Assembly (NCBI GenBank): GCA_910583735.1
Contig: CAJTXS010000003.1
Coordinates: 35,457-99,456 of the forward strand
From: an uncultured Christensenella sp.
Lineage (GTDB): Bacteria; Bacillota; Clostridia; Christensenellales; UBA3700
DNA length: 64,000 bases
Direction: 5' to 3'
Of this stretch, positions 5,810-62,886 are shown one piece after another; position 1 is the first letter of the stretch, and each line of letters starts with the position of its first letter. The translations under genes were made by a program, and so were the position numbers. The notes under the pieces are model-generated. The model saw only the letters and a list, made by a program, of their open reading frames with translations, was not told the origin of the DNA and did not search any database.

Positions 5810-5904
5810 CGCGGCGTTAAGCGTAAACGGAACTACCCTATAGAGGTAGCAAGATTAAGAATAACAGGCCCCGATAATCGATTGCGGGCTTAAGGAGATA
5901 TGAA

Positions 5905-32465: not shown

Positions 32466-32483
32466 GCGCACGCGCTCCCGCGC

Positions 32484-34421
32484 TTGCCGCGGCGCGATGA
32501 CAAGAAGCTATGGCATATTAATTGTTGCCCGCGGCGGCACGAGTATGTTAAAATTATTACCGTGAGCACTAAGAGTTACGACGCGATTGTTATAGGCGGA
32601 GGACATGCCGGAGTGGAGGCTGCCCTCGCGCTTGCGCGTACGGGACACAAGACTCTTATGATGACGCTTACCCCCGACGCCATCGCGTATATGGCGTGCA
32701 ATCCCGCAATAGGCGGCACGGCTAAGGGGCATCTCGTGCGCGAGGTAGACGCGCTTGGCGGACAGATAGGCATCAATGCCGACGCCACCGCTCTACAGAT
32801 ACGCATGCTCAATACGGGCAAGGGCGAGGCGGTGCAGTCGCTGCGCGCTCAGGCGGATAAAATCGCCTATCATATGAATATGAAGAGGACGCTGGAGACG
32901 CAGCCCAACCTCGACATATTGCAGAGCGAAGCGAGCGAGATATTGACTGAGGGCGGCGCGGTATGCGGCGTAAAGACGGCGCTGGGCGATACATACTTTT
33001 CACCCGTAGCGGTTGTGGCGACGGGAGTGTATCTCAACGCCAACGTCGTAATAGGCGACTGGGTGCGCAAGACGGGACCGTCGGGCTTTTCGGCGGCGAC
33101 AATGCTAACGGACAACCTCATTGGGCTGGGGCTGGAGGTAAGGAGATTCAAGACAGGCACGCCCGCGCGAGTGGACGGCAAGACGCTGGATTACTCCAAG
33201 ATGAGCGTCCAGGAGGGCGAAGAGGGTATATATCCCTTTTCCTTTATGACAGACGGTTATATCGACAACATAAAGCCCTGCTATCTCACCTATACCACGG
33301 CGCAGACCAAGCAGATAATCCTGGACAATATACACCGCTCGCCCCTATACAACGGCTCTATCAAGAGCACGGGTCCGCGGTACTGCCCCTCTATCGAGGA
33401 CAAGATAATGCGCTTTGCCGATAAGGAAAGGCATCAGATATTTATAGAGCCGGAGAGCGCGTATACCGACGAGATGTATGTGCAAGGCATGTCCTCGTCG
33501 CTGCCCTTCGACGTGCAAGAGGCGATGTATCGCAGCGTAGAGGGCATGGAAAGGGCGCGCATAGTACGTTACGCCTACGCTATAGAGTACGATTGCATAG
33601 ACTCCACCGCCTTAACCTCGAGCCTTGCGGTCAAGGGAGTGGGCGGACTGTACGCCTGCGGACAGATTAACGGCTCGAGCGGTTACGAGGAGGCTGCGGC
33701 TCAAGGGCTGATGGCGGGTATCAACGCCGCCAACTATTTAAGAGGTATGCCCGCGCTCGTGCTGGGACGCGACGAAGCGTATGCGGGCGTATTGATAGAC
33801 GACCTCGTGACTAAGGGCACTAACGAGCCCTACCGAATGATGACCGCGAGGGCGGAACACAGACTGCATCTCAGGCAGGAGAACGCGGATATGCGTCTCA
33901 CGCAGAAAGGACGCGACGCGGGCTTGGTAGACGATGCGCGATACGAGAGATATCTCAAGCGCAAGGCGGAACTGGACGAGTACAGGGCGCGCCTTAAGGA
34001 CAGTCTGCCCGGGCAAGAGGCGCAGGCGTGTTGCCTTGCCGCGGGAATGCAGACAAATATGGGCGGCTCTGCGAGCGCCGAGGCTCTGATAAAGAGAGGG
34101 GTGCCTGCCGAGATAATAAGGCAATATACGGCGAGCTTTAAGGACTGCGGCGCGAGGACCATGGCGGAGCTTGCTACCGAGTGTAGATACGAAGGGTATC
34201 TCAAGAAGCAGATTGCCGCCATCGAACAAGAGAAAAAACTTGAACATAGGGCGCTTCCCGACGGAATAGATTATATTAACATGCACGGATTAAGGTTGGA
34301 AGCAAGACAAAAGCTGGACAAAATCAGACCTGCAAATTTAGGACAGGCGTCGAGGATATCGGGTGTATCTCCAGCAGATATAACGGTACTCATGGCATAT
34401 CTGTCCGTAAGGAGTAAATAA
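32484..34421 (+). CDS. mnmG: tRNA uridine 5-carboxymethylaminomethyl modification enzyme MnmG (GidA)
   Basis: FAD motif YDAIVIGGGHAGVEAA and strong GidA-like sequence throughout. The true start may be the GTG at 32562, since the first 26 codons look non-conserved. Confidence 0.93.
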   Translation: MPRRDDKKLWHINCCPRRHEYVKIITVSTKSYDAIVIGGGHAGVEAALALARTGHKTLMMTLTPDAIAYMACNPAIGGTAKGHLVREVDALGGQIGINADATALQIRMLNTGKGEAVQSLRAQADKIAYHMNMKRTLETQPNLDILQSEASEILTEGGAVCGVKTALGDTYFSPVAVVATGVYLNANVVIGDWVRKTGPSGFSAATMLTDNLIGLGLEVRRFKTGTPARVDGKTLDYSKMSVQEGEEGIYPFSFMTDGYIDNIKPCYLTYTTAQTKQIILDNIHRSPLYNGSIKSTGPRYCPSIEDKIMRFADKERHQIFIEPESAYTDEMYVQGMSSSLPFDVQEAMYRSVEGMERARIVRYAYAIEYDCIDSTALTSSLAVKGVGGLYACGQINGSSGYEEAAAQGLMAGINAANYLRGMPALVLGRDEAYAGVLIDDLVTKGTNEPYRMMTARAEHRLHLRQENADMRLTQKGRDAGLVDDARYERYLKRKAELDEYRARLKDSLPGQEAQACCLAAGMQTNMGGSASAEALIKRGVPAEIIRQYTASFKDCGARTMAELATECRYEGYLKKQIAAIEQEKKLEHRALPDGIDYINMHGLRLEARQKLDKIRPANLGQASRISGVSPADITVLMAYLSVRSK

Positions 34422-35107
34422 TGGACATATTGGACAGTTATCTCGAGCGCTACGGCATCGAGGACATCAGGGAAAAGCTCGATATTTTTTACGAAGAATT
34501 GATCGAGTGGAACGAGAAGTTTAATCTCACGTCGATTACGGACAGAGACGCCGTGTACGAGAAGCACTTTATCGACAGTCTCTTTGCCGTGACAAGGCTG
34601 CCCGAAGGCGCAAAGGTATGCGACATCGGCAGCGGAGCGGGACTGCCCGTCATCCCCCTCGCCTTGGCGCGTCCCGACTGCGAGTTTACTTCCGTGGACA
34701 GTCTCAACAAGCGCGTGGGCTTTATGGACCACATCATCGAAGAGCTGGAGATAGACAATTGCTCCGCATATCACGACAGGGCGGAAGATTGGGCTAAGGA
34801 GCACAGAGAGGAGTACGACGTATGCACTGCTCGCGCGGTTGCGCCGCTCAATATCTTGGCGGAGTACTGCATGCCTCTTGTCAAGGTGGGCGGAATTATG
34901 CTCGCCTATAAGGGCGCGGACGGCGCGAAGGAATTAAAGACAGCCGCCAAGGCGCTCACTCTGCTGGGCGCGGGCAACGTCAATACGCTCAGTACTACCC
35001 TGCCTTGCGGCGACCGCAGAATGATTATCATGGTGCAGAAGGTCAAGCCTACCCCCGCATCTTATCCCAGAGGCGGCAACAAGCCGAGACTGTCGCCGCT
35101 GATATAG
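34421..35107 (+). CDS. rsmG: 16S rRNA (guanine527-N7)-methyltransferase RsmG
   Basis: 228 aa. FNLTSITD and the SAM motif DIGSGAGLPVIPLA. Its start overlaps the mnmG stop. Confidence 0.92.
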   Translation: MDILDSYLERYGIEDIREKLDIFYEELIEWNEKFNLTSITDRDAVYEKHFIDSLFAVTRLPEGAKVCDIGSGAGLPVIPLALARPDCEFTSVDSLNKRVGFMDHIIEELEIDNCSAYHDRAEDWAKEHREEYDVCTARAVAPLNILAEYCMPLVKVGGIMLAYKGADGAKELKTAAKALTLLGAGNVNTLSTTLPCGDRRMIIMVQKVKPTPASYPRGGNKPRLSPLI

Positions 35108-35108
35108 G

Positions 35109-36182
35109 ATGTATGTAGAGAGCGTAAAACTTAATAATTTCCGCAACTACGAGGATAAGAAGGTATCCTTTAGCGACGGTTTGAATGCAATCGTGGGTAA
35201 GAACGCTACGGGCAAGACCAATCTGCTCGAGAGCGTATATATCTGCGGGCTGGGCAATTCCGCTCGTGTGAGCAGGGACAAAGACTGCATACGCTGGGGG
35301 TGCGACGGAGCCTATATCGGACTTAAGTTAATCAAGAAGTACCGCTCTCACACCATAGACATATATATCGACTCGAGGGAGAAGAAGAGGATTGCCATAG
35401 ACGGCATACCTATCAGCAGGATATCGCAGCTTATAGGCGTAATGAACGTGGTATTCTTCTCTCCCGACGAGATGAAACTCGTCAAGGACGCCCCGCAGGA
35501 GAGGCGGCGCTTTGCGGACATTTCGCTGTCGCAACAGTCGGCTAATTATCTGTATTCCCTCTCTCGTTACAACGCTGCGCTGATAAGGCGCAACAAGTTG
35601 CTCAAGACCTTGCCTGCGGGCGAGAAATTGCGACAGTCGTTGCAGGTGTGGGACACGCAGATAGCCGCCGAAGGCGCTAAGCTCATAGCGGCAAGATACG
35701 ACTTTGTAGACAAGCTCAAAGACTTTGCGCTCGAAAGGCATCTCAAGCTCACCGCGGGAGCGGAGAAGTTGGAGCTGAGCTACGAGAGCGGAATAGATAT
35801 GGGCGGGGTCAAAGATATCGAGGAGACGCTCATATCCAAGCTGGCAAGCTCGTACGAAAAGGACGCGCACCTGCAATACACGAGCGTGGGACCGCACAGG
35901 GACGACATAAAGATATCGGTAGACGGCATAGACGTACGCAAATACGGCTCGCAGGGACAGCAGCGCACGGCGGCGCTCTCGCTCAAGCTGTCCGAGATAT
36001 CGCTGTTTACTCACGAGACGGGCGAGACGCCTATATTGCTGCTCGACGACGTGCTGTCAGAGCTGGATAGGGATAGGCGCAATATGTTGCTTAGGGAGAC
36101 GTCGCAGTTGCAGACGATAATCACCTGCACGGAGTACGAAGAGAGCCTAGTTGCCAACATAATATCCACGGCGAGAGAGTAA
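35109..36182 (+). CDS. recF: DNA replication and repair protein RecF
   Basis: 357 aa. N-terminal NFRNY, Walker A GKNATGKTNLLE, signature SQGQQRTAALSLKL and Walker B LLLDDVLSELD. Confidence 0.93.
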   Translation: MYVESVKLNNFRNYEDKKVSFSDGLNAIVGKNATGKTNLLESVYICGLGNSARVSRDKDCIRWGCDGAYIGLKLIKKYRSHTIDIYIDSREKKRIAIDGIPISRISQLIGVMNVVFFSPDEMKLVKDAPQERRRFADISLSQQSANYLYSLSRYNAALIRRNKLLKTLPAGEKLRQSLQVWDTQIAAEGAKLIAARYDFVDKLKDFALERHLKLTAGAEKLELSYESGIDMGGVKDIEETLISKLASSYEKDAHLQYTSVGPHRDDIKISVDGIDVRKYGSQGQQRTAALSLKLSEISLFTHETGETPILLLDDVLSELDRDRRNMLLRETSQLQTIITCTEYEESLVANIISTARE

Positions 36183-46948: not shown

Positions 46949-47419
46949 CTACTCGGCGTCATTATTAAGCTCTTGCAGTCTGCTTTTAGCGTATTTTACG
47001 GACAAAGAATATTGCCGCTCTATGTCCTCAAGTTCCCTTTGATACTTGCGCAGCGCCTGCGCCGCTTTTTTATCACGCAATTCTTCTTGAGCGGTAATAT
47101 ACTCTTCTATACGCCCTTTGTCGCTCTTGGAAAGAGCTGCCATCTTTATGACGTCCGGTGCGATTGCCTGCGCAAGATTTTTGAACATCTGCCTCTCCCC
47201 TTCTTCAAGCTCTTTGGTACGACGCATAAATATGCCCTTCGTCTCCTCGCCGCTCATAGACCCTACCATGCCAACTTGTATAAAGTTACGGTTAGTAGGC
47301 GGAACGGCTACCTTTTGCATATATAGCGGCGCGCGTGTAAAATAATCTTTTCCGTCCTTGTGCTTAGGCGGCAGTATGTCGGTAGCATCGTAGTAGTTGT
47401 CGTCATCGTCTATAATCAT
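46949..47419 (-). CDS. Hypothetical protein with coiled-coil C-terminus
   Basis: 156-aa ORF with no recognisable motif. Acidic N-terminus and a Lys/Glu-rich helical C-terminus. Confidence 0.55.
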   Translation of the reverse strand: MIIDDDDNYYDATDILPPKHKDGKDYFTRAPLYMQKVAVPPTNRNFIQVGMVGSMSGEETKGIFMRRTKELEEGERQMFKNLAQAIAPDVIKMAALSKSDKGRIEEYITAQEELRDKKAAQALRKYQRELEDIERQYSLSVKYAKSRLQELNNDAE

Positions 47420-47862
47420 TATTAATGCCCCTTATATGGATAGATAACTAAATGATAACGACTTATATATGACATATTATGTCATATTATTATCGACTTG
47501 TAAATATTGCTGCGGTTGAGGCAAATGAGCTATTGCATAATTGCGGCAGTTAATGCCAGTAGAAAGATTTTATTGTATAAATTATAAATTCCTTTGCCCG
47601 TGCGCTGTGATGCTCGTACTGCGCTGTTACGCTTTCTTCTTTGTAGTCGCTCCACCTGTCAGTACCTTTTACCGTAAATGTCAAGCTTTCGGCTATAAGT
47701 TACATTTTACGTCTCTTATACGTTGTTTACCTTGAAAAATAAAAATAGGCTTGTTTTTTATCAAGCCGGTGTAAACTTGCAATTTTGTTTTACTTTTATG
47801 CTTTACATTGACGTAAAATGTGATATAATGCTCTATTAAAATCGAGAGGGAATGTAACGGAA

Positions 47863-48252
47863 TTGCGAAACGAGTTCATAATAGACGATAACGGATGTCT
47901 TATGGAGTATATAGGAACAAGCAAATATGTTAGCTTGCCTTCCGACGTAAAAGAAATTTCTTTTCGCACATTTCTTCGCAGCGATATTTGCTCTATAGAG
48001 ACCCCCAATAGCGTGACTTATATAGACGTACAGGCATTTCTGTGTTGCGACAACTTAAGACATGTAGTAATACCTATAAGCGTTAAGGCAATGGAATATG
48101 CGGTCTTTGAAGATTGCAATAATCTTACCGATATTTACTTGGAGGCGCAACGATGTACGCATCTGGGATACGATTGGGATTACGGCTGCAAGGCAAAGCT
48201 GCACTTTGCGGGAGAGTGGGAATATGTTGACGGCGTGCCTAAGGTAAAATAA
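47863..48252 (+). CDS. BspA-type leucine-rich repeat (LRR_5) domain protein, short
   Basis: 129 aa. Repeats of the IPxSVxxIxxxAFxxCxNL type (SLPSDVKEISFRTF..., TPNSVTYIDVQAFLCCDNL, IPISVKAMEYAVFEDCNNL). Predicted TTG start. Confidence 0.65.
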   Translation: MRNEFIIDDNGCLMEYIGTSKYVSLPSDVKEISFRTFLRSDICSIETPNSVTYIDVQAFLCCDNLRHVVIPISVKAMEYAVFEDCNNLTDIYLEAQRCTHLGYDWDYGCKAKLHFAGEWEYVDGVPKVK

Positions 48253-48355
48253 TTTAATTATTGCGACGTAATACGGTATATGATCCAATATAAAATGCGT
48301 TGCGCTGCAAGATAATATTATAGGTAGTTGTTATCGGTTTGAAAGTCGGAATATG

Positions 48356-48559
48356 TTAATCTTCTACGCCGAGCAGGTAGTCGGTAGATACTGAGAAAAA
48401 TGCCGCTAATGTAATTACGGCGTTGGCATTGGGTACTCGCTGCTCCGTCTCCCAATACACTATTGCGGTGTGGCTTAGCCCGGTAGCATTTGCCAATTGA
48501 GCTTGGGATAGGTCTTTTTCTTTGCGGAGTTCTTTAAGTCTTTCGGCAAATTTATTCAT
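48356..48559 (-). CDS. XRE-family HTH regulator (copy 1)
   Basis: 67 aa: MNKFAERLKELRKEKDLSQAQLANATGLSHTAIVYWETEQRVPN. Roughly half identical by eye to the 48927 product. Confidence 0.85.
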   Translation of the reverse strand: MNKFAERLKELRKEKDLSQAQLANATGLSHTAIVYWETEQRVPNANAVITLAAFFSVSTDYLLGVED

Positions 48560-48658
48560 AAAAAAATACTATCACAAATGTGACTTAAAGTCTTGACTAA
48601 TCACGATTGGGACTGCTATAATAAATGCAGTCACAAAAGAGACTACAGCGTAATGTAA

Positions 48659-48877
48659 ATGGGAATTAGTAGAATGCATCAACATAACAGTTTGAATATA
48701 GAATTAATAAAACATTTTATTTTTTCAAATAACTTGACGATAAAAGACTTTTGTAAGCGATGTGGAATATGCGTTATTACTTATTATAAAATCATAAATA
48801 AAAAAAATTTCAATATGACTGCGCTCTTCAAAATTGCAAAGTTAATCGGTGTGCCTATATACATGCTGTTTAGATAG
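48659..48877 (+). CDS. Small HTH-like protein divergent from XRE copy 1 (Cro-like position)
   Basis: 72 aa (or from the ATG at 48674). LTIKDFCKRCGICVITYYKIINKKNFNMTALFKIAKLIGVPIYMLF resembles an HTH_3/HTH_26 fold. Paralog at 49215. Confidence 0.6.
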   Translation: MGISRMHQHNSLNIELIKHFIFSNNLTIKDFCKRCGICVITYYKIINKKNFNMTALFKIAKLIGVPIYMLFR

Positions 48878-48926
48878 TATATAAAATAATTAATAATAGG
48901 CTATCTATTTATTAAAAAAAATATTA

Positions 48927-49130
48927 TTAATCTTCTAAACCGATTAAATAGTCTGCTGTGCAAGAGAAAAATTTACATAATGCTATTATGCTTTCGATAT
49001 TAGGAATGCGTAAATTATTTTCCCATCTGTTGATACAGGCGACGCTTATATGTAGCTGTCTTGCCAGTTCGCTTTGAGAAAAATTTTTTTCTTCCCTTAA
49101 TTCTTTAAGTCTTTCAGCAAATTTATTCAT
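48927..49130 (-). CDS. XRE-family HTH regulator (copy 2)
   Basis: 67 aa from the ATG at 49130: MNKFAERLKELREEKNFSQSELARQLHISVACINRWENNLRIPN. Confidence 0.85.
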   Translation of the reverse strand: MNKFAERLKELREEKNFSQSELARQLHISVACINRWENNLRIPNIESIIALCKFFSCTADYLIGLED

Positions 49131-49214
49131 TGTCAAACCTACATTTATTGTATACCAATCGGTAATAAAGCGCTTGACTTTTGCCAATTGGTAAGAGCAT
49201 ATTGATATTACCAA

Positions 49215-49403
49215 ATGGCAACGAAGGGCGTTGATATGGATAATTTAATCAGAATTTATTTAATCGATAATTATTTGAAATATAATAATATCTCTAAAAC
49301 AAGTTTTTGCCTAAGATGCGGCATCAGTAATTCAACGCTTAATAAAATTTATTTAAGTAAAAATTTTAATATAAAAGCTTTGTTTAAGATAGCAAAAGAG
49401 TAA
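49215..49403 (+). CDS. Small HTH-like protein divergent from XRE copy 2, truncated by a stop
   Basis: 62 aa ending ...LFKIAKE*. The in-frame continuation after the TAA reads NLPVCRLFF*, which parallels LIGVPIYMLFR* of the 48659 paralog. Confidence 0.5.
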   Translation: MATKGVDMDNLIRIYLIDNYLKYNNISKTSFCLRCGISNSTLNKIYLSKNFNIKALFKIAKE

Positions 49404-49508
49404 AATTTGCCTGTGTGCCGATTATTTTTCTAAATAAAAATTTTGATATAGTTTATTAGATGTTTTATTGACCTTAGGCAAATTTCTTATTGATTTTCTT
49501 GCAGAACG

Positions 49509-50411
49509 TTATGCCGCATAATTCAAAGCTGCCAGTCTGTCTCGCGTATCGGGGTGCGTCTGGAACATAATGTCGAATGCGCTTGTCTTAACGCTTTCGC
49601 CGTCGATGGCGCTGAGGAACATAGCGAGCTGCTCTCCGTAGCCTATCTGATCGGCGAACTTATCTGCGGCGTATTCCGCCTTCCTTGAAGACCAGTTAAT
49701 CAACAGTACGCCAACTAAATTCCACAGCTTAAATAAGCCGATGATGACAATGCTGAATATGAAGTGAAGAATTACGGCGACTATATTGGTAAAAGTACTG
49801 TCGAATGCTTGCAAGATTGTAATGATTGCATAAGTGAAAAAAGTTATTATAGTCAAAAATATTGTGAGTATGCAGTTGGATACGTTAATGCCCAGTTTCA
49901 AATCGCTGTCGCCGTGCGCTATGTGACCGAACTCGTGCGCAAGCACGCCTTTAAGATATTCGGGATGAGCCCCGAGGATGCCCTTAGTAATTACTACTGT
50001 ACGATGTCCCAGAGCGTAGGCGTTGATGTCCTCGGACGAAGAGTAATATAATTTCACTTTGTCGGACACGCTCTTGGACAATCCGCGGGCTTCCGCCTTA
50101 ACCTGCTCGAATACTTCAAGCGCGGTGGACCAGTCCTGTTGCAACTCCTGCGCTGCGGGTTGCCTCTTTATGCCGTTGCGCAGTCTCCAAAACGCTTCTC
50201 CCATGGGCGTTAAGGAAATGAGTATGAATACGAAATTGACGCCCAGCCCTATTAAGCCCAAGTATATTCTGTTCATAGTCTCGTTGGGAGTTATGCTGTA
50301 AGGCAGTATATAGAAGATAAAGAATACGATTGCCGCATTGGCAAAAAAATATATCGTAGGCAATATATTTCTCGGTCTGAATAAGGACTTGAAGAAGCTA
50401 AATATGTACAT
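49509..50411 (-). CDS. HtpX-like M48 family integral-membrane zinc metalloprotease
   Basis: 300 aa. NAYALG...VITKGIL...LAHEFGHIAHGD (HExxH) between TM helices, then EYAADKFA and THPDTRDRL. Confidence 0.85.
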   Translation of the reverse strand: MYIFSFFKSLFRPRNILPTIYFFANAAIVFFIFYILPYSITPNETMNRIYLGLIGLGVNFVFILISLTPMGEAFWRLRNGIKRQPAAQELQQDWSTALEVFEQVKAEARGLSKSVSDKVKLYYSSSEDINAYALGHRTVVITKGILGAHPEYLKGVLAHEFGHIAHGDSDLKLGINVSNCILTIFLTIITFFTYAIITILQAFDSTFTNIVAVILHFIFSIVIIGLFKLWNLVGVLLINWSSRKAEYAADKFADQIGYGEQLAMFLSAIDGESVKTSAFDIMFQTHPDTRDRLAALNYAA

Positions 50412-50690
50412 TTTTAATATTTCCCTCGTGATTTAATTATATAGCGGCGTTGCATGCAAGTCAATTCCAACAAGCGTATTTGTAATAAATGTGTAAAATT
50501 GCAGCTGAAAATATAATTGATGCAATATTGCTTTAAGCTGAAACCATTCAGTTAAAAAAATTAGCTAAATTTATATTTTTTATAAGAATTAAGGCTAAAG
50601 TATTGCGATATGAAGAAGTTTTAATATTAATTAGCGCAAGCAATAGTTATGTAAACTTTATGTGCTGTCTGAGCGGTAGAAATATAAGAC

Positions 50691-50987
50691 CTATTTCTTT
50701 GTAATAGCAATCTTCATTAGATATTGTTCTTTGTCCTCTTCATTCAATAAATCCTTGATATTGCTAACTAAAAGGTGTTTACTCTCTCTTATCATAATAG
50801 ATGTATATTTTTTGCTTTGAGTACTTATAGATATATAACCGAAGCTGTGATAGGACATCTGCGCAGCGACTTCGACAATGTCCTTAAAATCAATGAAAAT
50901 TACTTTATTGTTACGAAAATAGAAATAGATACCGTTAACATCCGCCTGTATTGCGATTTTTGGCTCTGTGATAAATCTAAATAGCAA
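50691..50987 (-). CDS. Small protein, possible bacterial PH-like domain; may be the C-terminal part of a frameshifted gene
   Basis: 98-aa ORF with a TTG start. It overlaps the 3' end of the 50900-51211 ORF in another frame. Beta-rich sequence after two TMs is the DUF304/bPH-type layout. Confidence 0.4.
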   Translation of the reverse strand: MLFRFITEPKIAIQADVNGIYFYFRNNKVIFIDFKDIVEVAAQMSYHSFGYISISTQSKKYTSIMIRESKHLLVSNIKDLLNEEDKEQYLMKIAITKK

Positions 50988-51211
50988 AGCGACAAACAGA
51001 TAAAGGCTACGGTCAGGCAGATTAAAGGGATAAACAGGAAGCGCTTATCTTCTGTAAGACATGCCCAAACTATCATTAAGACGCTAAATGCGCCCGATAC
51101 GACAACGCTTTCCAAATCGGCGGCTTTTGTCGCCAGCGTATATTTTTGTTTTACCTCTTTCACAATCTCAGTTATAATCCTTATAAAGCTATAGATGCAA
51201 CTGTTTTGCAA
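50900..51211 (-). CDS. Small two-TM membrane protein (possible N-terminal part of a frameshifted gene)
   Basis: 103-aa ORF with two hydrophobic helices. Overlaps the 50691-50987 ORF by 88 nt. Confidence 0.45.
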   Translation of the reverse strand: MQNSCIYSFIRIITEIVKEVKQKYTLATKAADLESVVVSGAFSVLMIVWACLTEDKRFLFIPLICLTVAFICLSLCYLDLSQSQKSQYRRMLTVSISIFVTIK

Positions 51212-51236
51212 CTTAATTCAAATAATTACATTGAAT

Positions 51237-51806
51237 CTAAAACTTGCCAAGCCAATTAGCCGTCTCCTGCCGAGTAGTAAAAATCATATACGGCACGTCG
51301 GAGTTCTGCAATCTCTCTAAAACTCCGGGACGGACATTCGTCCTGTATCCTAATATCCACTCGACAAATTCCTCGTCAGCCTGCTCTTCGCATCCATCCG
51401 TCATGTCGGGACGCGAAGTGCCTCTGTATTTTTCTACGCGCTCATGCACGCTTTGTATACATAACCGAGTGTCGTAATCAAGGAATATGCACAAATCAGC
51501 ATACTTAAGTCTAAGCGCGAATGTCCTGTCATAATTCCCGTCGATAATCCATTTATTCTTTTTAAGTTGTTCTTCAAGCAATTTATCAAACTCCTCAGGC
51601 GGACGCGTCTCCCAATTAGGAAGCCAATACAACTTATCCAAATGCACTACAGGCAGCCGAAATTTATTACCCATTTCGACAGCTAAAGTGCTCTTTCCTG
51701 CTCCTCCGCAACCCACAATAAGTATTCTTTCGAAGTCAAATTTCATTTTGTCCTCGATTAATTTATTTGAGCCCATATAACGATTGCCGTTCTTAATAGT
51801 TTTCAT
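51237..51806 (-). CDS. P-loop NTPase, adenylate-kinase/topology-modulation-protein-like
   Basis: 189 aa. Walker A IVGCGGAGKSTLA near the N-terminus. Size and layout resemble AAA_17/18 kinase-like proteins. RBS AAGAGG before the ATG at 51806. Confidence 0.7.
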   Translation of the reverse strand: MKTIKNGNRYMGSNKLIEDKMKFDFERILIVGCGGAGKSTLAVEMGNKFRLPVVHLDKLYWLPNWETRPPEEFDKLLEEQLKKNKWIIDGNYDRTFALRLKYADLCIFLDYDTRLCIQSVHERVEKYRGTSRPDMTDGCEEQADEEFVEWILGYRTNVRPGVLERLQNSDVPYMIFTTRQETANWLGKF

Positions 51807-51948
51807 TTCTTTGCCTCTTTAGGCTGTTGCCGGGTAGCTGTTACGCAATTACGGGTAAACAATATTTAATGCAATTATCTATAGATAAGTCATAGATAAT
51901 AGCAAAATCATATTTCGCGATATAATAAAGATATTATAGATATAAAGT

Positions 51949-51972
51949 AAAAAACGCACAGTAGTGCGTTTT
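51949..51972 (-). terminator. ssrA terminator
   Basis: Minus strand, directly after the CCA end: AAAACGCAC-TACT-GTGCGTTTT followed by further T residues. Confidence 0.85.
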
Positions 51973-51976
51973 ATCA

Positions 51977-52336
51977 TGGTGGACCTGAGGGGAATTGAAC
52001 CCCTGTCCGAGAAACTTTGCACAGCGTTTTCTACATACTTAGCCGATTGTCGATTTCCCGTCAGGCAAGTCAAGCGGCAAACTTAACTGACGGATAGCCC
52101 TGAGTCTTGCGCGGTGCCTCGGGCATAACGCCGCGCCCTGTTCCACTGTCCGATGCCGGTTATGAAGCCGTGGAAACTTCAGCCGACAGCCTCGCTAATT
52201 AAGCTGCGAAGGCAAGAGAGCCGTTGTAGCTCTCGGTTTTATTTTCTGCGTTTAATTTTAATTTCCGTATTTGCGGAGACGAGCCTCCGGTATGCTTACA
52301 CTGCCCTCCCTTCCCCGTCGAAGCCGAGACAGGCCC
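51977..52336 (-). ncRNA. ssrA: tmRNA (SsrA), 360 nt
   Basis: The 5' GGGCCUG pairs with the 3' CAGGUCC-ACCA, including the G3:U wobble. T-arm GGGGUUCAAUUCCCC. 5' GGCUUCGACGGGG box. Tag ORF at 52249-52199 encodes AENKTESYNGSLAFAA then a stop. Confidence 0.95.
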
Positions 52337-55062: not shown

Positions 55063-55887
55063 TCAGAAAAATCTTTTATTGTTGCCGTACGACTTAGTCT
55101 TGCCGAAGCCCTTCTTCTTGAAGTTGACGCTGCTGGAAGCATCGTACATATCTATATCGGTGTGGTACTCGATGTTGCTCTTGGACACGGCGGGAGCGGA
55201 GCTATCGCTCCTGCGAGGTCTGTCCTCTCTTCTCCTGTCGGGGCGTCTATCGCCGTCTCTTCTGCCTGTCCTGCCCTCGCCTCTCTTCTTGCTGGGCGCG
55301 ATTACCACATAGCGGGAAGGCTCGTCGCCCTCGCTGTGGGTGGTGACATAGCTGTCGTCCGCAAGCGCGGCATGTATCACTCTGCGCTCAAAGGGGTTCA
55401 TAGGCTCCAACGATACCGCTTCGCCCGATTTCGCTGCCTTGAACGCCAGCCTGCGGGCGAGCTTGGTGAGCACTTGGACGCGCTTCTCGCGGTAATTCTC
55501 TCCGTCGACTATAACTCTGCCGTCAAATCCGCCCGTAGAGTTAGCTATGAGCAGGGCAAGATATTGCAGGCTATCCAGCACGTCGCCGCGGTAGCCGATG
55601 ATATGAGCTACGTCGGGACCGCCGATGTTGTAAAGATATCCTTCTTCCGTCTCGGTCATCTCGACTTCGCAGTCAAAGCCCATGCGCTTAATGGCGCCCT
55701 GTATGAACTCCAGCGCCGCGAGCTGACCTGTAAGTTTCTGCGTGACCTTAACCGTGACTTTCTTCTTAATAAGTCCGCTCTCCTTTACTATAGCGGTGTC
55801 TACTTCGCTCTCGTCAAGTCCCAACTGCTCGAGCGCGTTTCTTAACGCTTCGTCGTAAGATGATGCGGTGACTTCTATACTCTTCAT
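55063..55887 (-). CDS. jag: Jag/KhpB RNA-binding protein (Jag_N-KH-R3H) with Arg-rich C-terminal tail
   Basis: 274 aa. KH and R3H regions (MNPFERRVIHAAL). Lies downstream of yidC in the conserved order. Confidence 0.88.
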   Translation of the reverse strand: MKSIEVTASSYDEALRNALEQLGLDESEVDTAIVKESGLIKKKVTVKVTQKLTGQLAALEFIQGAIKRMGFDCEVEMTETEEGYLYNIGGPDVAHIIGYRGDVLDSLQYLALLIANSTGGFDGRVIVDGENYREKRVQVLTKLARRLAFKAAKSGEAVSLEPMNPFERRVIHAALADDSYVTTHSEGDEPSRYVVIAPSKKRGEGRTGRRDGDRRPDRRREDRPRRSDSSAPAVSKSNIEYHTDIDMYDASSSVNFKKKGFGKTKSYGNNKRFF

Positions 55888-55900
55888 AATCTTTCTCCCA

Positions 55901-57163
55901 TTACTTGGCGGATATGAGGCTCCTCGCTGCCTCCCGTCTGTCGAGTTGCTTAGTGATAATTATATAAGCGATGTTGAACAGCGTGCTGACCGCATTACTC
56001 ATGAAATAATAGAGTGCGAACGCCGCGCTGTATACTATTGCGAATATGCCCATTATTAACGGCATTGTATAAGTTACAATTTTCATGGTCCTCTGCTGGG
56101 ACTTTTGCTGCTCTGCGCCGCCTGCCATCATGTTCTGCGGCGACATCTTCTGCGTAAACCATGTGGTCAATACCGAAAGCACCACCGATATGATAGGCAG
56201 TACGAAATATCCGTTCCAGTTCTTTACGTCCCAGAATGACTTCTTATTAAGACGTTCCTGCGCAGGACCTGCGAGTGTGTCGTACGATACGCCCGATACG
56301 TCCCAGTGCGCCTGTATCTTGCCGCCCACGAACTGCTGCGCGGTAGGCACTACGTTGGTGCCCGTATCCGACATAAATACGTTCTTAATCCAAAGGAAGC
56401 TCTCCATGTGCTCTTCGTAGGCGTCGGCAAGACGCTCGTTGAGCCTGCTCTGATATGCGCCGGCTACGCCGCGCACGATAGCTTTTTGCTCTAAAGGCAG
56501 CTTGTTGATATAGCCGTTCTTCTCGGAGCTGTCCATATAGTCGCCGTACAGCGTGCGCGCCGCCGAGTATTTCTCCCAGCCCGCGCCTGACTGCGCGTCT
56601 ATCTGAGCGGAAAATTCGTTAAGAGAGTTATTTAACGCTTCATCGCCTATTTCCGCATTGCTGTCTAAGATAGCCTTCTTCTCGGCAGATACGACGTAAT
56701 CCTTTACCGCGGCGTCTACGTTGTCTGCATTGTCGTTGAATTCCAGATACGCGCCGTATACATTCTCCATTATAACTTCGTTCTGATATGCAACCAGCTG
56801 TCTGAAGCCCGCAAAGACTACGAAGAATATGACCATGGTGACGATAAGCGGCAGGCAGGAAGCAAGAGGGTGTAACTTCTCTTCCTTCTGCAATTCCGCT
56901 TGTTTCTGTCTCAGAAGTTGGGGTTGATTGGCGTATTGCTTTTGGAGCTTGGCAAGTTTAGGCTGAAGACGCGCCATAGCCTTGCTCTGCTTGCGCTGAG
57001 ATATCTTCTGCCAGATATCAAGCGGAGACGTAATTAACTTGAGTATTATGGTGAATACGATGACCGTGACACCGAACGACGGCAAAAGCTCGGACAACTG
57101 AACGAGCCACTTGCCAATCAGGTTGCTCGGCAGAGACACCGCCAACGTAGTTAAAATATCCAT
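55901..57163 (-). CDS. yidC: Membrane protein insertase YidC/Oxa1 family, unusually long
   Basis: 420 aa. TM1 IVFTIILKLITSPL, coiled-coil C1 loop, FLWIKNVFMSD, C-terminal TMs. About 120-150 extra residues lie between TM2 and the FLWI helix. Confidence 0.88.
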   Translation of the reverse strand: MDILTTLAVSLPSNLIGKWLVQLSELLPSFGVTVIVFTIILKLITSPLDIWQKISQRKQSKAMARLQPKLAKLQKQYANQPQLLRQKQAELQKEEKLHPLASCLPLIVTMVIFFVVFAGFRQLVAYQNEVIMENVYGAYLEFNDNADNVDAAVKDYVVSAEKKAILDSNAEIGDEALNNSLNEFSAQIDAQSGAGWEKYSAARTLYGDYMDSSEKNGYINKLPLEQKAIVRGVAGAYQSRLNERLADAYEEHMESFLWIKNVFMSDTGTNVVPTAQQFVGGKIQAHWDVSGVSYDTLAGPAQERLNKKSFWDVKNWNGYFVLPIISVVLSVLTTWFTQKMSPQNMMAGGAEQQKSQQRTMKIVTYTMPLIMGIFAIVYSAAFALYYFMSNAVSTLFNIAYIIITKQLDRREAARSLISAK

Positions 57164-57372
57164 TTAGCAACTCCTCGGTAATTATCCTTAACGGGATCGT
57201 GTCCGCCCTCTTTCCAAGGCACGCATCTAAGCAGTCGCATGATGCCCATGATTATCCCCAAAGGTCCCCATTTGATTACAGCTTGTCCCATATAAGCCGA
57301 ACAGGACGGCGTATAGATACACCTGTCCTTCATCAATGGATTATAATACCTCTTATATATGCGTATCAGCAT
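57151..57372 (-). CDS. yidD: Membrane protein insertion efficiency factor YidD
   Basis: 73 aa. CIYTPSCSAY...RLLRCVPW is the classic YidD pattern. Confidence 0.9.
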   Translation of the reverse strand: MLIRIYKRYYNPLMKDRCIYTPSCSAYMGQAVIKWGPLGIIMGIMRLLRCVPWKEGGHDPVKDNYRGVAKWIF

Positions 57373-57787
57373 ACGCCGCCTTATTGTCGGATGCGGTATC
57401 GGCCCCTATGCTATCCTCAATAGATTGAGAAAACAGCCTGAGTGCGCCCGCCTTATCCTTTAGCAATCCTGCCTTGTTAAGAGTCGATATTAAATCTTGA
57501 GCCAGTTTTGCATAAGGCGCGTCGGCTGAACCCGACTTTGCCACTATTACGTAATTATATCCGCCTTGGAGATATCCTATCAATCGCATAGCGATATCTT
57601 TTATGCGCCGCTTGACCTTGTTGCGAACTACGCTCTTGCCCACGCGCTTACCGGAGACGACCCCTACGCGCAGAGCGTATCTTGTAGGGCAATAGGTGAT
57701 AGACGTATATGTTCCGCCGCACCTGCTGCCCTTGCGGTAGATATATGAAAAAGTGCGTCTGCCTCCCAGACGGTACTTCTTCTGCAT
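57353..57787 (-). CDS. rnpA: Ribonuclease P protein component
   Basis: 144 aa. RNR-like basic motif (KSVVRNKVKRRIKD). Lies directly downstream of rpmH. Has a C-terminal extension overlapping yidD. Confidence 0.88.
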   Translation of the reverse strand: MQKKYRLGGRRTFSYIYRKGSRCGGTYTSITYCPTRYALRVGVVSGKRVGKSVVRNKVKRRIKDIAMRLIGYLQGGYNYVIVAKSGSADAPYAKLAQDLISTLNKAGLLKDKAGALRLFSQSIEDSIGADTASDNKAAYADTHI

Positions 57788-57799
57788 ATCGAATGTCGA

Positions 57800-57934
57800 T
57801 TACGCGCTAAGTTGCTTTCTGCCCTTGTTGCGGCGACGAGCGATTACGTTCCTGCCGCCCTTAGTGGACATCCTCTTACGGAAGCCGTGGACCTTGCTGC
57901 GCTGTCTCTTTTTGGGTTGATAAGTTCTCTTCAT
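57800..57934 (-). CDS. rpmH: 50S ribosomal protein L34 (below the ORF-track length cut-off)
   Basis: Manual translation of the minus strand gives [44 protein letters not shown] followed by a stop. Confidence 0.95.
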
Positions 57935-57969
57935 ATCGTTAAGCCCTCTCTTTTAATAATAGCTAAACC

Positions 57970-57999
57970 AGTATAATATAAGGCTTCCCTCGCTGTCAA
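57970..57999 (-). promoter_or_regulatory. Probable rpmH promoter
   Basis: Minus strand reads TTGACA, an 18-nt spacer, then TATACT, about 35 nt upstream of the rpmH ATG. Confidence 0.5.
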
Positions 58000-58214
58000 G
58001 TAAATAATCTTTTATATTATTATATAAAGGCGGCGCTTTCAGTCAACCGATTGACCGATTGAAATAGGCGATAGCCTCCGCTGTATATCGACGAAAAGTA
58101 TATTATATCTGTCGAATAAAGTATAATTGAATACTTGACCGCGGCAAATTAGAAGTAGACAACGATAAAAATCGAAGGTTGTTAAGCATCGCACTCGAGT
58201 AACCTATATTAAAA

Positions 58215-58243
58215 TTGACCGCTCCAAGTAAAATAAATATAAT
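58215..58243 (+). promoter_or_regulatory. Near-consensus promoter inside the ORF-free region
   Basis: TTGACC, a 17-nt spacer, then TATAAT on the plus strand, with no ORF downstream. Confidence 0.45.
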
Positions 58244-58290
58244 CAGTCGGATATCGAAATAAAACGGTAAAACATGTTATAAACAAAAGT

Positions 58291-58322
58291 TATATTGATA
58301 ATAATAAATTATTATCAATATA
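58291..58322. repeat. Perfect 15-bp inverted repeat
   Basis: TATATTGATAATAAT-AA-ATTATTATCAATATA. Confidence 0.9.
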
Positions 58323-58586
58323 AAATTAATAATAATATAAGTCAAAGTATATAATGTCGGAATATAATTTCTTTTGTAAAATAACGTATGCGCTCGAAAA
58401 CAGTAATCTGATAGTTGCAGCCGTAGGGGGGGGGATTATAACAAGATAATAGATATCTGTAAATGCAGGCGCAAACAAATTACAGGATTAAACTTGCATG
58501 TCAATATGTGCGACATATAAATATCTATAAGATATTACGTTGAATGCAAAGTATTAAATAACATGCGCTGCTATAACCGTCAAGAA

Positions 58587-58602
58587 TGTTTAACGTGAAA
58601 CA
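58587..58602. promoter_or_regulatory. parS: parS-like centromere site (15/16 match)
   Basis: TGTTTAACGTGAAACA compared with the Firmicute consensus TGTTNCACGTGAAACA, with one mismatch at position 6. Confidence 0.65.
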
Positions 58603-58885
58603 TGAGGGTAAAATACCGAAATCATAATATATAATCCTTTATTATACCTGATCGACTGCATATCCCTATTTTAACTTTAATAATATTTTTTATGCCTAAG
58701 CGCGCCATCTCAAGTAAAGTAACGACAGATAATCGATTCAAGACTATTCTTGAGCATTAAATTATAAAGCAAATAGTAAAACAGTCTGCGCGGCTGCGTA
58801 CATCGATATACAACATGCGCTCAACCGCAATTATATCTACAGAAACAACGTAAATTCTTTTTAATCTATTACAGGTGTATATGGC

Positions 58886-58908
58886 GCGTTTGAGCGCAAA
58901 CGCTTTTT
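58886..58908 (+). terminator. Rho-independent terminator inside the ORF-free region
   Basis: GCGTTTG-AGCG-CAAACGC followed by TTTTT. Confidence 0.6.
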
Positions 58909-60152
58909 CAGAGTAAATATCGGGATAAAAATTAATGTTCTATGATTTTAGATGATTTTTTTTGCGCAGTAAAAGCATTTTACAGCGCGCCGATAATAAA
59001 TATTTTAATATTTAATAAAAATGCGGAGGTTTATGCTGTTTGAGTTTTAATATCGATTGCATAAATAGATGCGGATCCTTAGATGTCGGTTACGCATCTA
59101 TTCGGATATTATTGATATCTACCGTGCTTAGATATCAATTGATATATAAATTGTAAGCCGAATAATATCGATTTTCTCATCTGCCGCTGTATCTCGAGCT
59201 ATAGCCGCAGTAGTATTGCTTTTATCAAGTGCGACACGTATATGCTGTACGTGTAGTGCTCGGACTGATTTGTAAGCGGCAGTAGCTTTATCTTGCCAAA
59301 ATAATATGGTTTGCTCGCGGTAATAAGCGGTTAAGAGATGTTTCGGATGCTATTTTTATAATAAATCGCTGTAATCCCTATACATATCGCGCTCAAATGA
59401 TTGCGAATATATCAAGTAATAAATTCAAATTACTGTATTGATACATATTATAAATCAGTATCGGATACTTACCTATTTATATAAATAAATGCGTTGACGC
59501 TCGAGCTTAACGGTAATAACTGCAATGCCGCATAAATGATTTGAATTAATAATTACATCATAAAGCGGATAGCGCAACAAATTTGCAGCGGTATAGACTG
59601 TAGATAATTATCGCAAAAAAAAGCGATAAGCAAAAAAATCCGACCGATATAAAATTTAATCTTTGATGCTGCCGAGCTTTGGCAGCATTATAAAAACCGT
59701 CTTGCTTAAGCTGTGCTCTTGCTTGTCAACACAATACCGGCAAAGCCTCGCTTGTGTAATAGGATTTATCTCGTGTAAAACAAGCGTTTTTAGCAAAAAC
59801 GGGCGATATTGAGTATAAAATCCGTGTAATACGGGCAAAATCTACATTAAAAGGATATTTATATCGGAGAGGCATGTCGGCGAGCGGGAACGGTCGTATG
59901 GATATATCGTGCGGCTCAAAGATAAATAGCGCGCAAGTTTGCTCTAGTTATTTGCGCTATTATATATTATCTCGACTGAATATATATATTTACGCAGTTA
60001 ATGAGGCGGCTGCGCTTGCAGTTGATTTTTATATGATTGCCGCGCTTCTTTGCCTGGGCGCCTCTGCCGTCGATTATGCGTCAATTATTTTTTTTAATTA
60101 AATTGCAAACACTGCGTATCGATAATTTATAATTTTAACAACTTTAAGCTAA

Positions 60153-60168
60153 TGTTTTACGTGAAACA
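60153..60168. promoter_or_regulatory. parS: parS-like centromere site (15/16 match)
   Basis: TGTTTTACGTGAAACA compared with TGTTNCACGTGAAACA, with one mismatch at position 6. Confidence 0.65.
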
Positions 60169-60777
60169 TAGCTAAATGTTATACGAGTAATTTATCTTTG
60201 ATTATGTGCCAAACCGCTTGAAAAGGCGCGATATTTGCCATGTATTACCTTTTGTTATATTTATAAATTATTGATAAAGTGATTATTAAGCTAATGGCGT
60301 GGGATTAAATAAATCGCTTGATGCTGTATTCTTAATTATATTCACAGTTGTTGCAAGATAGATGAAGTAGGTGCGCTGTATTGGACGAACCGATACATTC
60401 GGATTTATTATCATATAATCAATACATGTTTTTATTTGTTGCGATATCTTTCCGATTGTTAAGGCATAGCGCAATTCCCTTGCATTGCCGTAGATTAAGC
60501 GCCGAGCCGGGGAAAGTCGATTAAGTCCGTAGTCGGGATTATGCGCTTTTGCAATGTTTCAGGGACAAAAGCATCATTTTTACAACTTGTCCCGGACAAG
60601 CATTTTATAATGTTCCTCGTGTAACAAAAATCGACTAATTTAAGAATATATATTTCTAAAACTGGCAAATAATAGAATTATTACTTCTTATATATAACTA
60701 ATAGTTGAGTGCAGACTTGTTATTTTTAACATGATTTTTGTGTATTTTCGGCTATAAAAGGGTAATTTTTCAGACAA

Positions 60778-60800
60778 AGTTTCACGGCGTTTGTGAAACA
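60778..60800. repeat. Split parS-like inverted repeat
   Basis: AGTTTCAC-GGCGTTT-GTGAAACA. The two parS half-sites are separated by 7 nt. Confidence 0.5.
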
Positions 60801-60861
60801 AATTAAGCATATTTATCATGACGGATTATTGAGCGATTAATACGTGGTTTTTAGTTAAATT

Positions 60862-61230
60862 TTAGGCGTTGATGCCTTGTTTTTTAATGCAATCGAAGGT
60901 CTCCGCGCTGATTATATGCTCGATTTTGCAAGCGTCTTCCTCAGCGGTCTCCGCGCTTACGCCTAAAGATTGGAGAAAACGTGTCAAGACGATGTGTCTT
61001 TCGTATATTCTGTCCGCGATTTCTCTGCCCGAGTCGGTAAGCGAGATGTTGCCGTCGCCGTCTACAGTAACGTGCCCGCTCTCTCTGAGATGCTTTAAGG
61101 CGATGCTGACGCTGGGCTTGGAAAATCCAAGCTCCTGCGCGATTTCTATTGCGCGGACGCTTCCTTTAGTGCTCTTGAGCATCAATATCGTCTCGAGGTA
61201 GTTCTCCGAAGAGGCGTTGATATTGGGCAT
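60862..61230 (-). CDS. DtxR/MntR-family metal-dependent transcriptional regulator
   Basis: 122 aa. SENYLETILML...VRAIEIAQELGFSKPSVSIALKHLRESGHV and DRIYERHIVLTRFL are typical of DtxR/MntR N-terminal and dimerisation domains. Confidence 0.85.
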   Translation of the reverse strand: MPNINASSENYLETILMLKSTKGSVRAIEIAQELGFSKPSVSIALKHLRESGHVTVDGDGNISLTDSGREIADRIYERHIVLTRFLQSLGVSAETAEEDACKIEHIISAETFDCIKKQGINA

Positions 61231-61854: not shown

Positions 61855-62886
61855 ATGACAACTTTAATGCAGCAGGAGATATTTTCCGAACCCGAAATGA
61901 TTAAGCGTACGATAGCGTCTTGCCGTCCCGTGGCGGCTGAGATTGCCGAAGCCTTCAAGACAAAGGGGATAACCAAGGTAGTCACATTGGCAAGAGGCAC
62001 ATCGGACAATGCCGCTACCGTATTTTCTTTCGTGTTCCCCCTTACTGCGGGAATCAACGTAGGACGCTTTCATCCCTCGGTGTATACCGTATACGATAAA
62101 AAGGTGGATATGAGCGATACGTGTATGATAATCGTATCGCAGAGCGGTATGTCCAAGGACACGGTAGACGTGTTCAATAAGGCTAAGGCCGCGGGCGCCA
62201 TGGTAGTTGCGGTGACGGACAACGCTCAATCTCCCGTTGCTAAGGGCAGCGATTATCACCTGTTTATAGACGTTGAGGAAGAAAAGAGCGTAGCCGCGAC
62301 CAAGACTTATATAGGCGAGGTAGTGGCGCTGCTTATCTTGGCGGAGGCATTCGGGGCGAATATAACCGACGGTATTGACAGCGTATGCGGTAAGATAGCC
62401 GATATTCTCGGCAAGAACGACGAAATAGCCGAGGTCGCAAAGGCTATCAAGGACAGAAAGAGCAATATTATTCTCTCCCGCGGCACTATGCTCGGCACGG
62501 GCGACGAGTGCGCGCTCAAGCTCACCGAGTGCTGCTACATGTTCAATCGCTCCTTCTCTACAGCCAACTTTATGCACGGTCCCTTCTCCCTCATAGACGA
62601 GGACGCGCACGTAATAATGCTGGCTCCTTCGGGCGTATTCACCAAGGAGTACACCGAGCTTGCAAGGCGCATCGTTTCTTTGGGCGGAAAGCTCACCGCA
62701 TTCAGCGATATCCCCGAGGTGCTCGAAGTGGCGAACAACAAGATAGTCATGCCGAAAGAGGACGATATCATAGCTCCCGTCACCTACGGCGTAGCCGTAT
62801 CGCTGCTCGCGCTCAACGTGGGACTTGCCAAGGGGCTGAGCGTAGATACGCCCCGCAACCTCAATAAGGTAACGGTTACTTTATAA
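61855..62886 (+). CDS. SIS-domain sugar phosphate isomerase/aminotransferase-like protein (GlmS C-terminal / FrlB / AgaS type)
   Basis: 343 aa. Two SIS repeats (LARGTSDNAA, IVSQSGMSKDTV, AVTDNAQSPVA). RBS AAGGAGA. Confidence 0.8.
   Translation: MTTLMQQEIFSEPEMIKRTIASCRPVAAEIAEAFKTKGITKVVTLARGTSDNAATVFSFVFPLTAGINVGRFHPSVYTVYDKKVDMSDTCMIIVSQSGMSKDTVDVFNKAKAAGAMVVAVTDNAQSPVAKGSDYHLFIDVEEEKSVAATKTYIGEVVALLILAEAFGANITDGIDSVCGKIADILGKNDEIAEVAKAIKDRKSNIILSRGTMLGTGDECALKLTECCYMFNRSFSTANFMHGPFSLIDEDAHVIMLAPSGVFTKEYTELARRIVSLGGKLTAFSDIPEVLEVANNKIVMPKEDDIIAPVTYGVAVSLLALNVGLAKGLSVDTPRNLNKVTVTL

Follow-up and report, generated by a model that had tools for sequence, protein, structure and literature searches.

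A gene-free tract upstream of rpmH

We looked at a 64-kb stretch of DNA from an uncultured Christensenella sp. (contig CAJTXS010000003.1 of assembly GCA_910583735.1), referred to below as the window. In this window, a long AT-rich tract that contains sites resembling parS, the DNA sequence recognized by the partition protein ParB, separates rpmH from a gene encoding a DtxR/MntR-family repressor (hereafter MntR). Its features, together with those of the genes discussed with it, are collected in Table 1.

The GC content of the tract is 0.34, against about 0.52 in coding DNA. The AT-rich segment that contains it (57934-60886, 2953 bp) is the longest of the window, the runners-up measuring about 1.0 kb each (48509-49525 and 50256-51288). 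An initial annotation, made by reading the sequence, had described a 2.9-kb AT-rich locus free of open reading frames (ORFs), and the frame scan, the GC content and the ranking of AT-rich segments all agree with this description. It had also called the gap an outlier, which holds, although the 600-700 bp that it gave for other gaps is too low in view of the 1.0 kb of the next longest tracts. The longest stop-free frame in the tract spans 112 codons and no credible gene was found there. Alternative genetic codes in which TGA, TAG or TAA is read through were tried as well and opened no credible ORF. On identical public contigs, gene callers report nothing but ORFs of 30-75 aa in the tract, and the 75-codon ORF that they sometimes call (59874-60101) is frameshifted in conspecific strains. 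Nine public assemblies of the species, independent of each other, contain the gap with 96-100% identity, among them the metagenome-assembled genome GCA_948973615.1, and it is therefore no assembly artefact. Its length is steady between conspecific strains, which differ by small indels only.

Table 1. Positions, in the 64-kb window, of the tract, its sites and the genes discussed in the text
Feature	Position	Strand	Description
dnaA	4448-5809	plus	Pfam Bac_DnaA and Bac_DnaA_C; domain IV motif GGRDHTTIIHA; directly upstream of parB, 52 kb from rpmH
parB (spo0J)	5905-6765	plus	Pfam ParB_N and HTH_ParB; motifs GERRYRA and ENLQRED; predicted reader of the sites
rpmH	57800-57934	minus	first gene of the operon rpmH-rnpA-yidD-yidC-jag, then radC and birA
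Gene-free tract	57935-60861		between rpmH and the DtxR/MntR-family repressor gene; 2.9 kb, 34% GC
rpmH promoter and leader	57935-58046	minus	from a promoter scan: TTGACA-18-TATACT (57999-57970), second promoter-like site 58046-58019
34-bp palindrome	58290-58323		16-nt arms, two inverted TTATCAATA motifs
parS1	58587-58602		TGTTTAACGTGAAACA; one mismatch to the parS consensus; within a 19-nt repeat common to parS2
parS2	60153-60168		TGTTTTACGTGAAACA; one mismatch to the parS consensus
Palindrome CTTGTCCCGGACAAG	60586-60600		invariant among strains
parS3	60611-60626	minus	degenerate, TGTTACACGAGGAACA, two mismatches; orthologue in relatives TGTTACACGGGAAACA
Split parS	60778-60800	minus	TGTTTCAC-N7-GTGAAACA; two 8-bp parS half-sites, 7-bp A-rich spacer
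DtxR/MntR-family repressor gene	60862-61230	minus	same strand as rpmH
SIS-domain protein gene	61855-62886	plus	next gene past DtxR/MntR

ParB-type sites of the tract

The 64 kb were scanned with the parS consensus TGTTNCACGTGAAACA. Six strand-hits were obtained, corresponding to three sites that all lie in the tract, against 0.06 expected. A further element, which we call the split parS, reads T-GTTTCAC-AAACGCC-GTGAAAC-T on the minus strand. There are four copies of the heptamer GTTTCAC in the 64 kb, all inside the tract, of which it is the most enriched 7-mer (4 vs 0.06). All four elements, parS1, parS2, parS3 and the split parS, are invariant among strains whose surrounding spacer differs by 5-8%. 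In related species, parS1 is found within an identical 20-mer (loci L014-L016) and parS2 as an identical site directly downstream of uvrD (L010-L013), while for parS3 the alignment shows TTGTTACACG.G.AACATT kept in three species. Two parS-like sites and a split parS-like repeat had been pointed out in the initial annotation; they prove to be beyond chance, invariant in strains and kept in relatives.

The split parS across the order

We searched 97 loci for the pattern GTTYCAC-N7-GTGAAAC. It was present in 32 of them, representing about 25 species, in exactly one copy and always upstream of rnpA. The order-wide consensus is aaAAaT-GTTTCAC-AAAA-NN-C-GTGAAAC-A. The 7-nt arms are essentially invariant (22 species). 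In the flanks, conservation is limited to a short A-rich run on one side, and one clade has the element in the reverse orientation with respect to rpmH. The split site of L010-L013 carries the variant GTTCCAC. A metagenome collection gave 39 matches to the motif, at least 15 of them with rpmH within 0.3-5 kb, and 2.9 million viral contigs gave none. Five metagenome contigs display the same order of elements, namely a DnaA-box cluster, three or four parS, the split parS and rpmH. On three contigs of one metagenomic clade, L106 (934/994), L125 (1244/1304) and L129 (859/919), a distance of exactly 60 nt separates the split parS from a perfect DnaA box upstream of it. In the first two the split parS is itself about 355 nt upstream of rpmH, whereas the short L129 contig does not include rpmH.

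We considered the split parS as an RNA hairpin and rejected it. Arms that are invariant while the flanks vary, together with an orientation that flips, fit a DNA site read by a protein and not a hairpin; in addition, the A-tract of the spacer is kept and the fold energy is weak. In the literature, we found no description of the split parS, nor of the replication origin (oriC) of Christensenellaceae. ParB from P. aeruginosa binds single half-parS heptamers, GTTCCAC and GTTTCAC (PMC5961200, PMC10419367). The split parS combines two heptamers of this kind, GTTTCAC and GTGAAAC. Whereas hundreds of single heptamers are scattered in P. aeruginosa, the pair described here is unique and inverted, with a fixed 7-bp A-rich spacer and a position kept order-wide, and GTTTCAC is absent from the rest of the 64-kb window. 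Among ParB-type sites, the split parS can be regarded as a new variant.

Divergence within the species and comparison with relatives

The window was aligned with three other haplotypes of the species, and divergences are given against two of them, L001 and L002, in this order. Four-fold degenerate sites of the flanking genes differ by 1.6% and 5.7%. The AT-rich spacer that forms the central 2 kb of the tract (58101-60100) differs by 5.3% and 8.1%, that is 1.4-3.3 times faster than the four-fold sites, indicating that the centre evolves at or above the neutral rate. In contrast to this spacer, the right-hand 760 bp (60101-60861) differ by 2.9% and 3.4%, about half the central values in both comparisons; this corresponds to 0.6 times the four-fold rate versus L002 but to 1.8 times versus L001. 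The right-hand block includes parS2, parS3, the split parS and the palindrome at 60586-60600, is collinear with the conserved block of L010-L014 and, as far as these alignments indicate, is constrained. The rpmH-proximal 166 bp differ by 0.6% and 1.2%.

RnpA homologues led us to contigs (L010-L017) of two species whose RnpA is about 60% identical. A scan with one genome per species assigned the organism to Christensenellales, and the nearest named relative was Candidatus Caccalectryoclostridium excrementigallinarum, with 56% RnpA identity. In comparison with the two species, conservation is restricted to about 100 nt directly upstream of rpmH, to the parS units of 19-20 nt and to a block at approximately 60560-60830. 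The rpmH promoter and leader are about 78% identical over 80-105 nt, and the block holds the parS3 orthologue and, about 165 nt away, the split parS. The central 2 kb showed no similarity across species.

In these relatives (L010-L017), uvrD, spo0A and small ORFs lie between MntR and rpmH, and MntR is inverted. A rearrangement-prone region of this kind would suit a tract that is simply decaying DNA, left over from genes that were deleted or rearranged or from an ancient insertion, in which a few parS persist and which has no function of its own. The fast divergence of the central 2 kb fits this explanation too, as do the lack of conservation, even within the species, of most palindromes and of a promoter/terminator pair described below, and the presence of another gene-poor AT-rich zone in the window (47.4-52 kb). 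However, the syntenic genes have left no detectable trace: when UvrD, Spo0A and the small ORFs from L010, L011 and L014 served as tblastn queries, no hit in the gap was significant, and one match of 10 residues (E=1.6) was due to chance. The initial annotation had named intact genes at the syntenic position of relatives, which would make this a pseudogenised tract, as a finding that would overturn its reading; UvrD and Spo0A are indeed there, yet no remnant of them is detectable here. Pfam found nothing on the ten longest frames of the tract, and nothing similar to it turned up in the phage and plasmid collections (blastn, distant mode). The stable length among strains also speaks against decay.

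A further argument comes from the order as a whole. We compared the longest ORF-free stretch on both sides of rnpA in 28 Christensenellales-like loci. Upstream, its median was 1.77 kb, with at least 2 kb in 13/28 loci and a maximum of 5.7 kb, against a median of 0.42 kb, at least 2 kb in 0/28 and a maximum of 1.1 kb downstream. Bacterial genomes are compact, and deletion bias should remove useless DNA. The recurrence of multi-kb ORF-free tracts at one position is therefore hard to square with this bias unless something retains them, and mere decay looks improbable to us.

Two observations were made on the gene-poor DNA of relatives. In L013 (4761-5953) and L010 (4590-5351), spo0A lies within a gene-poor stretch between MntR and uvrD-rpmH; our window has no spo0A. 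In Candidatus Caccalectryoclostridium excrementigallinarum (L018, 5000-7000), the DNA upstream of uvrD and rpmH has a GC skew of +0.23 to +0.33 and strong swings of AT skew; it contains only overlapping TTG-start ORFs and looks like non-coding DNA of unusual composition.

Palindromes and the question of an RNA

The locus had been described as palindrome-dense, and this holds against 200 shuffles, none of which reached the observed counts: 23 palindromes with arms of at least 7 nt (8.3 +/- 2.9 in shuffles) and 3 with arms of at least 10 nt (0.23 in shuffles). The palindromes at 59064, 59111 and 59666 are decayed in other strains. The repeat TTATCGC-A8-GCGATAA, previously assigned to 59589-59610, is actually located at 59608-59629. 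The 34-bp palindrome at 58290-58323 carries a double substitution in strain L002 (A>T at position 14 and T>A at position 21) that keeps its symmetry, and it is possibly the binding site of a dimeric protein. It had no counterpart in the BLAST/nhmmer comparison with other species, in which it was not searched for on its own.

Could the tract encode one or more long non-coding RNAs, as the initial annotation had suggested, or structured RNAs? A transcript could, for example, run from the promoter at 58215 to the terminator at 58886-58908 that was described there as clean. The sequence TTGACC-17-TATAAT at 58215-58243 does fit 11/12 consensus positions, a stem followed by a T-run is found at 58886-58908, and the excess of palindromes points in the same direction. 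Nevertheless, promoter-like sites (21 vs 14.8 +/- 4.0) and terminator-like sites (6 vs 3.3 +/- 1.7) occur at the level of shuffled sequences. Moreover, in L001 and L002 the terminator stem (58886-58903) carries two uncompensated changes and the T-run is broken; the promoter/terminator pair is not conserved. The proposed transcript (58250-58910) folds no better than shuffles, with a minimum free energy z-score of -1.22, and the consensus fold energy of the conserved right-hand block is weak (-4.6 kcal/mol). Rfam gave no match in the tract even at E<=5 and no family in the upstream tracts of relatives; at gathering thresholds, the whole window and 11 related loci yielded tmRNA and tRNAs alone, all outside the tracts. 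Considering also that the central 2 kb lack cross-species conservation and diverge at or above the neutral rate, we regard an RNA gene in the tract as highly improbable.

Equivalent tracts of other Christensenellales and the origin question

In other Christensenellales, the tracts upstream of rnpA contain arrays of parS. L028 has six of these sites within 2.8 kb, five being perfect; four were counted in L047, four in L051 and three in L053. Perfect DnaA boxes (TTATCCACA) are clustered there at four or five per about 250 bp in L047 (6241-6428), L051 (5782-5950) and L053 (4537-4775), and clusters of perfect boxes are also present in the upstream tracts of L045, L038 and L020-22 and of the metagenomic loci L104, L105, L109, L127 and L136. 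Together, the parS arrays and DnaA-box clusters suggest a combined oriC-parS region in those genomes. Between the species of the L047/L051/L053 clade, boxes, parS units and a block near rpmH are kept and the intervening 2 kb are not. We take the tract of our window to be the positional homologue of this combined oriC-parS tract.

Two side observations concern the same loci. A block directly upstream of rpmH (L051 9306-9749, equivalent to L047 9495-9919 and L053 6676-7114) is about 450 nt long and about 75-80% conserved in the three species, a coding-level conservation with no long ORF and no Rfam match; it may be a conserved non-coding element. Furthermore, a perfect TTATCCACA lies inside yidC in L010/L013/L019 (11413), L014 (11416), L047 (11200) and L053 (8453), and yidC of the window species has no box at one mismatch or fewer.

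The adjacency of rpmH and oriC is the ancestral bacterial arrangement. It could be that the tract is or contains an oriC left by rpmH after dnaA moved away, with boxes too degenerate to be recognized and with parS as origin-adjacent passengers. The perfect box clusters in the homologous tracts of distant relatives are in line with this, as is the fact that no other long stretch of the window is as AT-rich. The gene strands also agree, since 70% of coding bases left of the gap are on the minus strand and, to the right, the genes past MntR have plus-strand orientation. The oriC-like tracts beside rpmH in L047, L051, L053, L104 and L105 share with our tract its position, its AT-rich ORF-free character, a parS array and the split parS.

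Unlike these tracts, however, that of the window has no DnaA-box cluster, as the initial annotation had already noted. It holds a single one-mismatch box (TTATCTACA, 59599), and allowing a second mismatch revealed no enrichment of boxes. A relaxed TTWTNCACA scan and de novo enrichment of 7-9-mers and of degenerate 9-mers, in the tract and upstream of dnaA, returned only words related to parS. A cluster is likewise missing in the nearest relatives (L010-L019). Because neither the species nor its nearest relatives have a recognizable DnaA-box cluster, any origin function here is putative. Yet DnaA retains the box-reading motif GGRDHTTIIHA, so that canonical boxes are expected somewhere. The densest group of boxes in the window was noticed elsewhere, just past dnaA-parB, where three one-mismatch boxes (TTGTCCACA, TTATCCGCA and TTATCCTCA) lie in 480 bp (7049-7531) inside a 451-aa ORF without Pfam family (6936-8291); another lies at 6005.

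The genes around the tract broadly switch orientation, with the minus-strand MntR gene as an interruption, and the minus-to-plus change that had been placed at the tract itself actually occurs at 61.2-61.8 kb. Raw GC skew follows gene strand and is positive within the gap and to its right. After correction for gene strand, the skew left of the gap remains positive (intercept +0.034, confidence interval (CI) 0.020-0.049; GC3 +0.057, CI 0.022-0.093), and seven of nine non-coding tracts have a clearly positive GC skew. The top strand is thus leading-like on both sides of the gap and there is no sign switch at it, although 64 kb is short for such a test. This does not support an origin at the gap. 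With dnaA at a distance of 52 kb as a further point against it, we think it unlikely that the tract is the origin. Of the centromere- or origin-organising region that the initial annotation had imagined, the origin part finds no support in boxes, dnaA position or skew, and the centromere-like part is upheld by the constraint on the parS sites and by the presence of ParB.

The genes that classically surround an origin are spread over 55 kb of the window (4448-6765, 31131-36182 and 55063-57934). The block mnmE-mnmG-rsmG-recF is a separate plus-strand unit at 31131-36182, and the tract, which adjoins rpmH, is 24-55 kb from dnaA, parB, mnmE/mnmG/rsmG and recF. With dnaA-parB and this block both far apart from rpmH, the classical origin gene cluster is dispersed. 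We also observed that parB directly follows dnaA, without dnaN or parA.

A putative ParB-loading domain

Origin-proximal clusters of parS bound by Spo0J/ParB are known in B. subtilis, C. crescentus and P. aeruginosa (parS1-4). The sites of our tract are likewise 16-bp palindromes of the TGTTNCACGTGAAACA type, which in these ParABS systems lie near rpmH, dnaA and parB, and they too are conserved across species with a canonical ParB of the cytidine triphosphate (CTP)-dependent type encoded nearby. By its motifs, the ParB of the window is of this type and has what is expected of a CTP-dependent sliding clamp. Unlike ParABS centromeres, which are placed in or between ordinary genes, the sites described here stand in a dedicated multi-kb, ORF-free, AT-rich tract with a neutral spacer, one of them is split by a 7-bp insertion, and no parA was found in the window.

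Altogether, these results suggest, with a probability of about 60%, that the tract is a non-coding ParB-loading domain, similar to a centromere, in the origin-proximal region of a Christensenellales chromosome. ParB dimers would load at parS1 and parS2, and possibly at parS3. Once loaded, they would form closed CTP clamps that slide along the adjoining AT-rich, untranscribed-looking DNA, and in this way build up the complex for partition and SMC loading that gives the origin region its organisation. In the split parS, the half-sites lie 7 bp further from each other than in a normal parS, and the element would be a distinct protein site, at which either a pair of half-sites holds ParB while the clamp stays open or another protein binds. 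As for the spacer, it would matter, if at all, through its length, its AT-richness or the absence of transcription and not through its sequence. A free track for ParB and SMC, a residual origin function and mere history are candidate reasons for the retention of 2 kb of neutral DNA.

Several points weigh against a ParB-loading domain. The sites are predictions from sequence. The mismatches of parS1 and parS2 fall at central positions (TTAACG and TTTACG), and parS3 has two mismatches. Three or four sites per 2.9 kb are sparse next to L028. A Pfam scan of the 56 larger ORFs of the window revealed no ParA-type ATPase, and parA is present in L028. The gene neighbours of the tract vary between related species, with MntR inverted and uvrD and spo0A interposed, so that the length of the tract may reflect rearrangement history and not selection. 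Finally, a neutral spacer of 2 kb is also what is expected of decaying DNA.

A multi-kb gene-free tract kept for parS at one position across an order of gut Clostridia would be unusual in compact genomes. Should the retention of such a tract serve the loading and sliding of ParB, the recruitment of SMC or an origin function, it would bear on how long a free track the partition complex needs. The split parS is sharply defined and easily testable, and its study could uncover either another way in which ParB binds DNA or a so far unknown protein of the origin region. It is also a practical marker of the origin region in metagenome-assembled genomes of Christensenellales whose dnaA is away from rpmH. 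More speculatively, and with a good deal less confidence, Christensenellales may keep upstream of rpmH a kb-scale gene-free "regional centromere" whose sequence can drift and in which only parS-type sites are fixed, together with the split parS TGTTTCAC-AAAANNC-GTGAAACA as a new class of site (a clamp-incompetent ParB anchor or the target of a separate origin-organising protein), and in this family the tract may still serve as an origin as well, firing without a canonical DnaA-box cluster.

A second gene-poor zone of the window

Another gene-poor AT-rich zone extends from 47378 to 52000, with a GC content of 0.28-0.37, and adjoins the tmRNA gene (51977-52336, minus strand). It contains a 129-aa fragment of a BspA-type leucine-rich-repeat protein, an M48 peptidase and ORFs without family. 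Its content differs between conspecific strains, and it may be an island or a remnant at the tmRNA locus.

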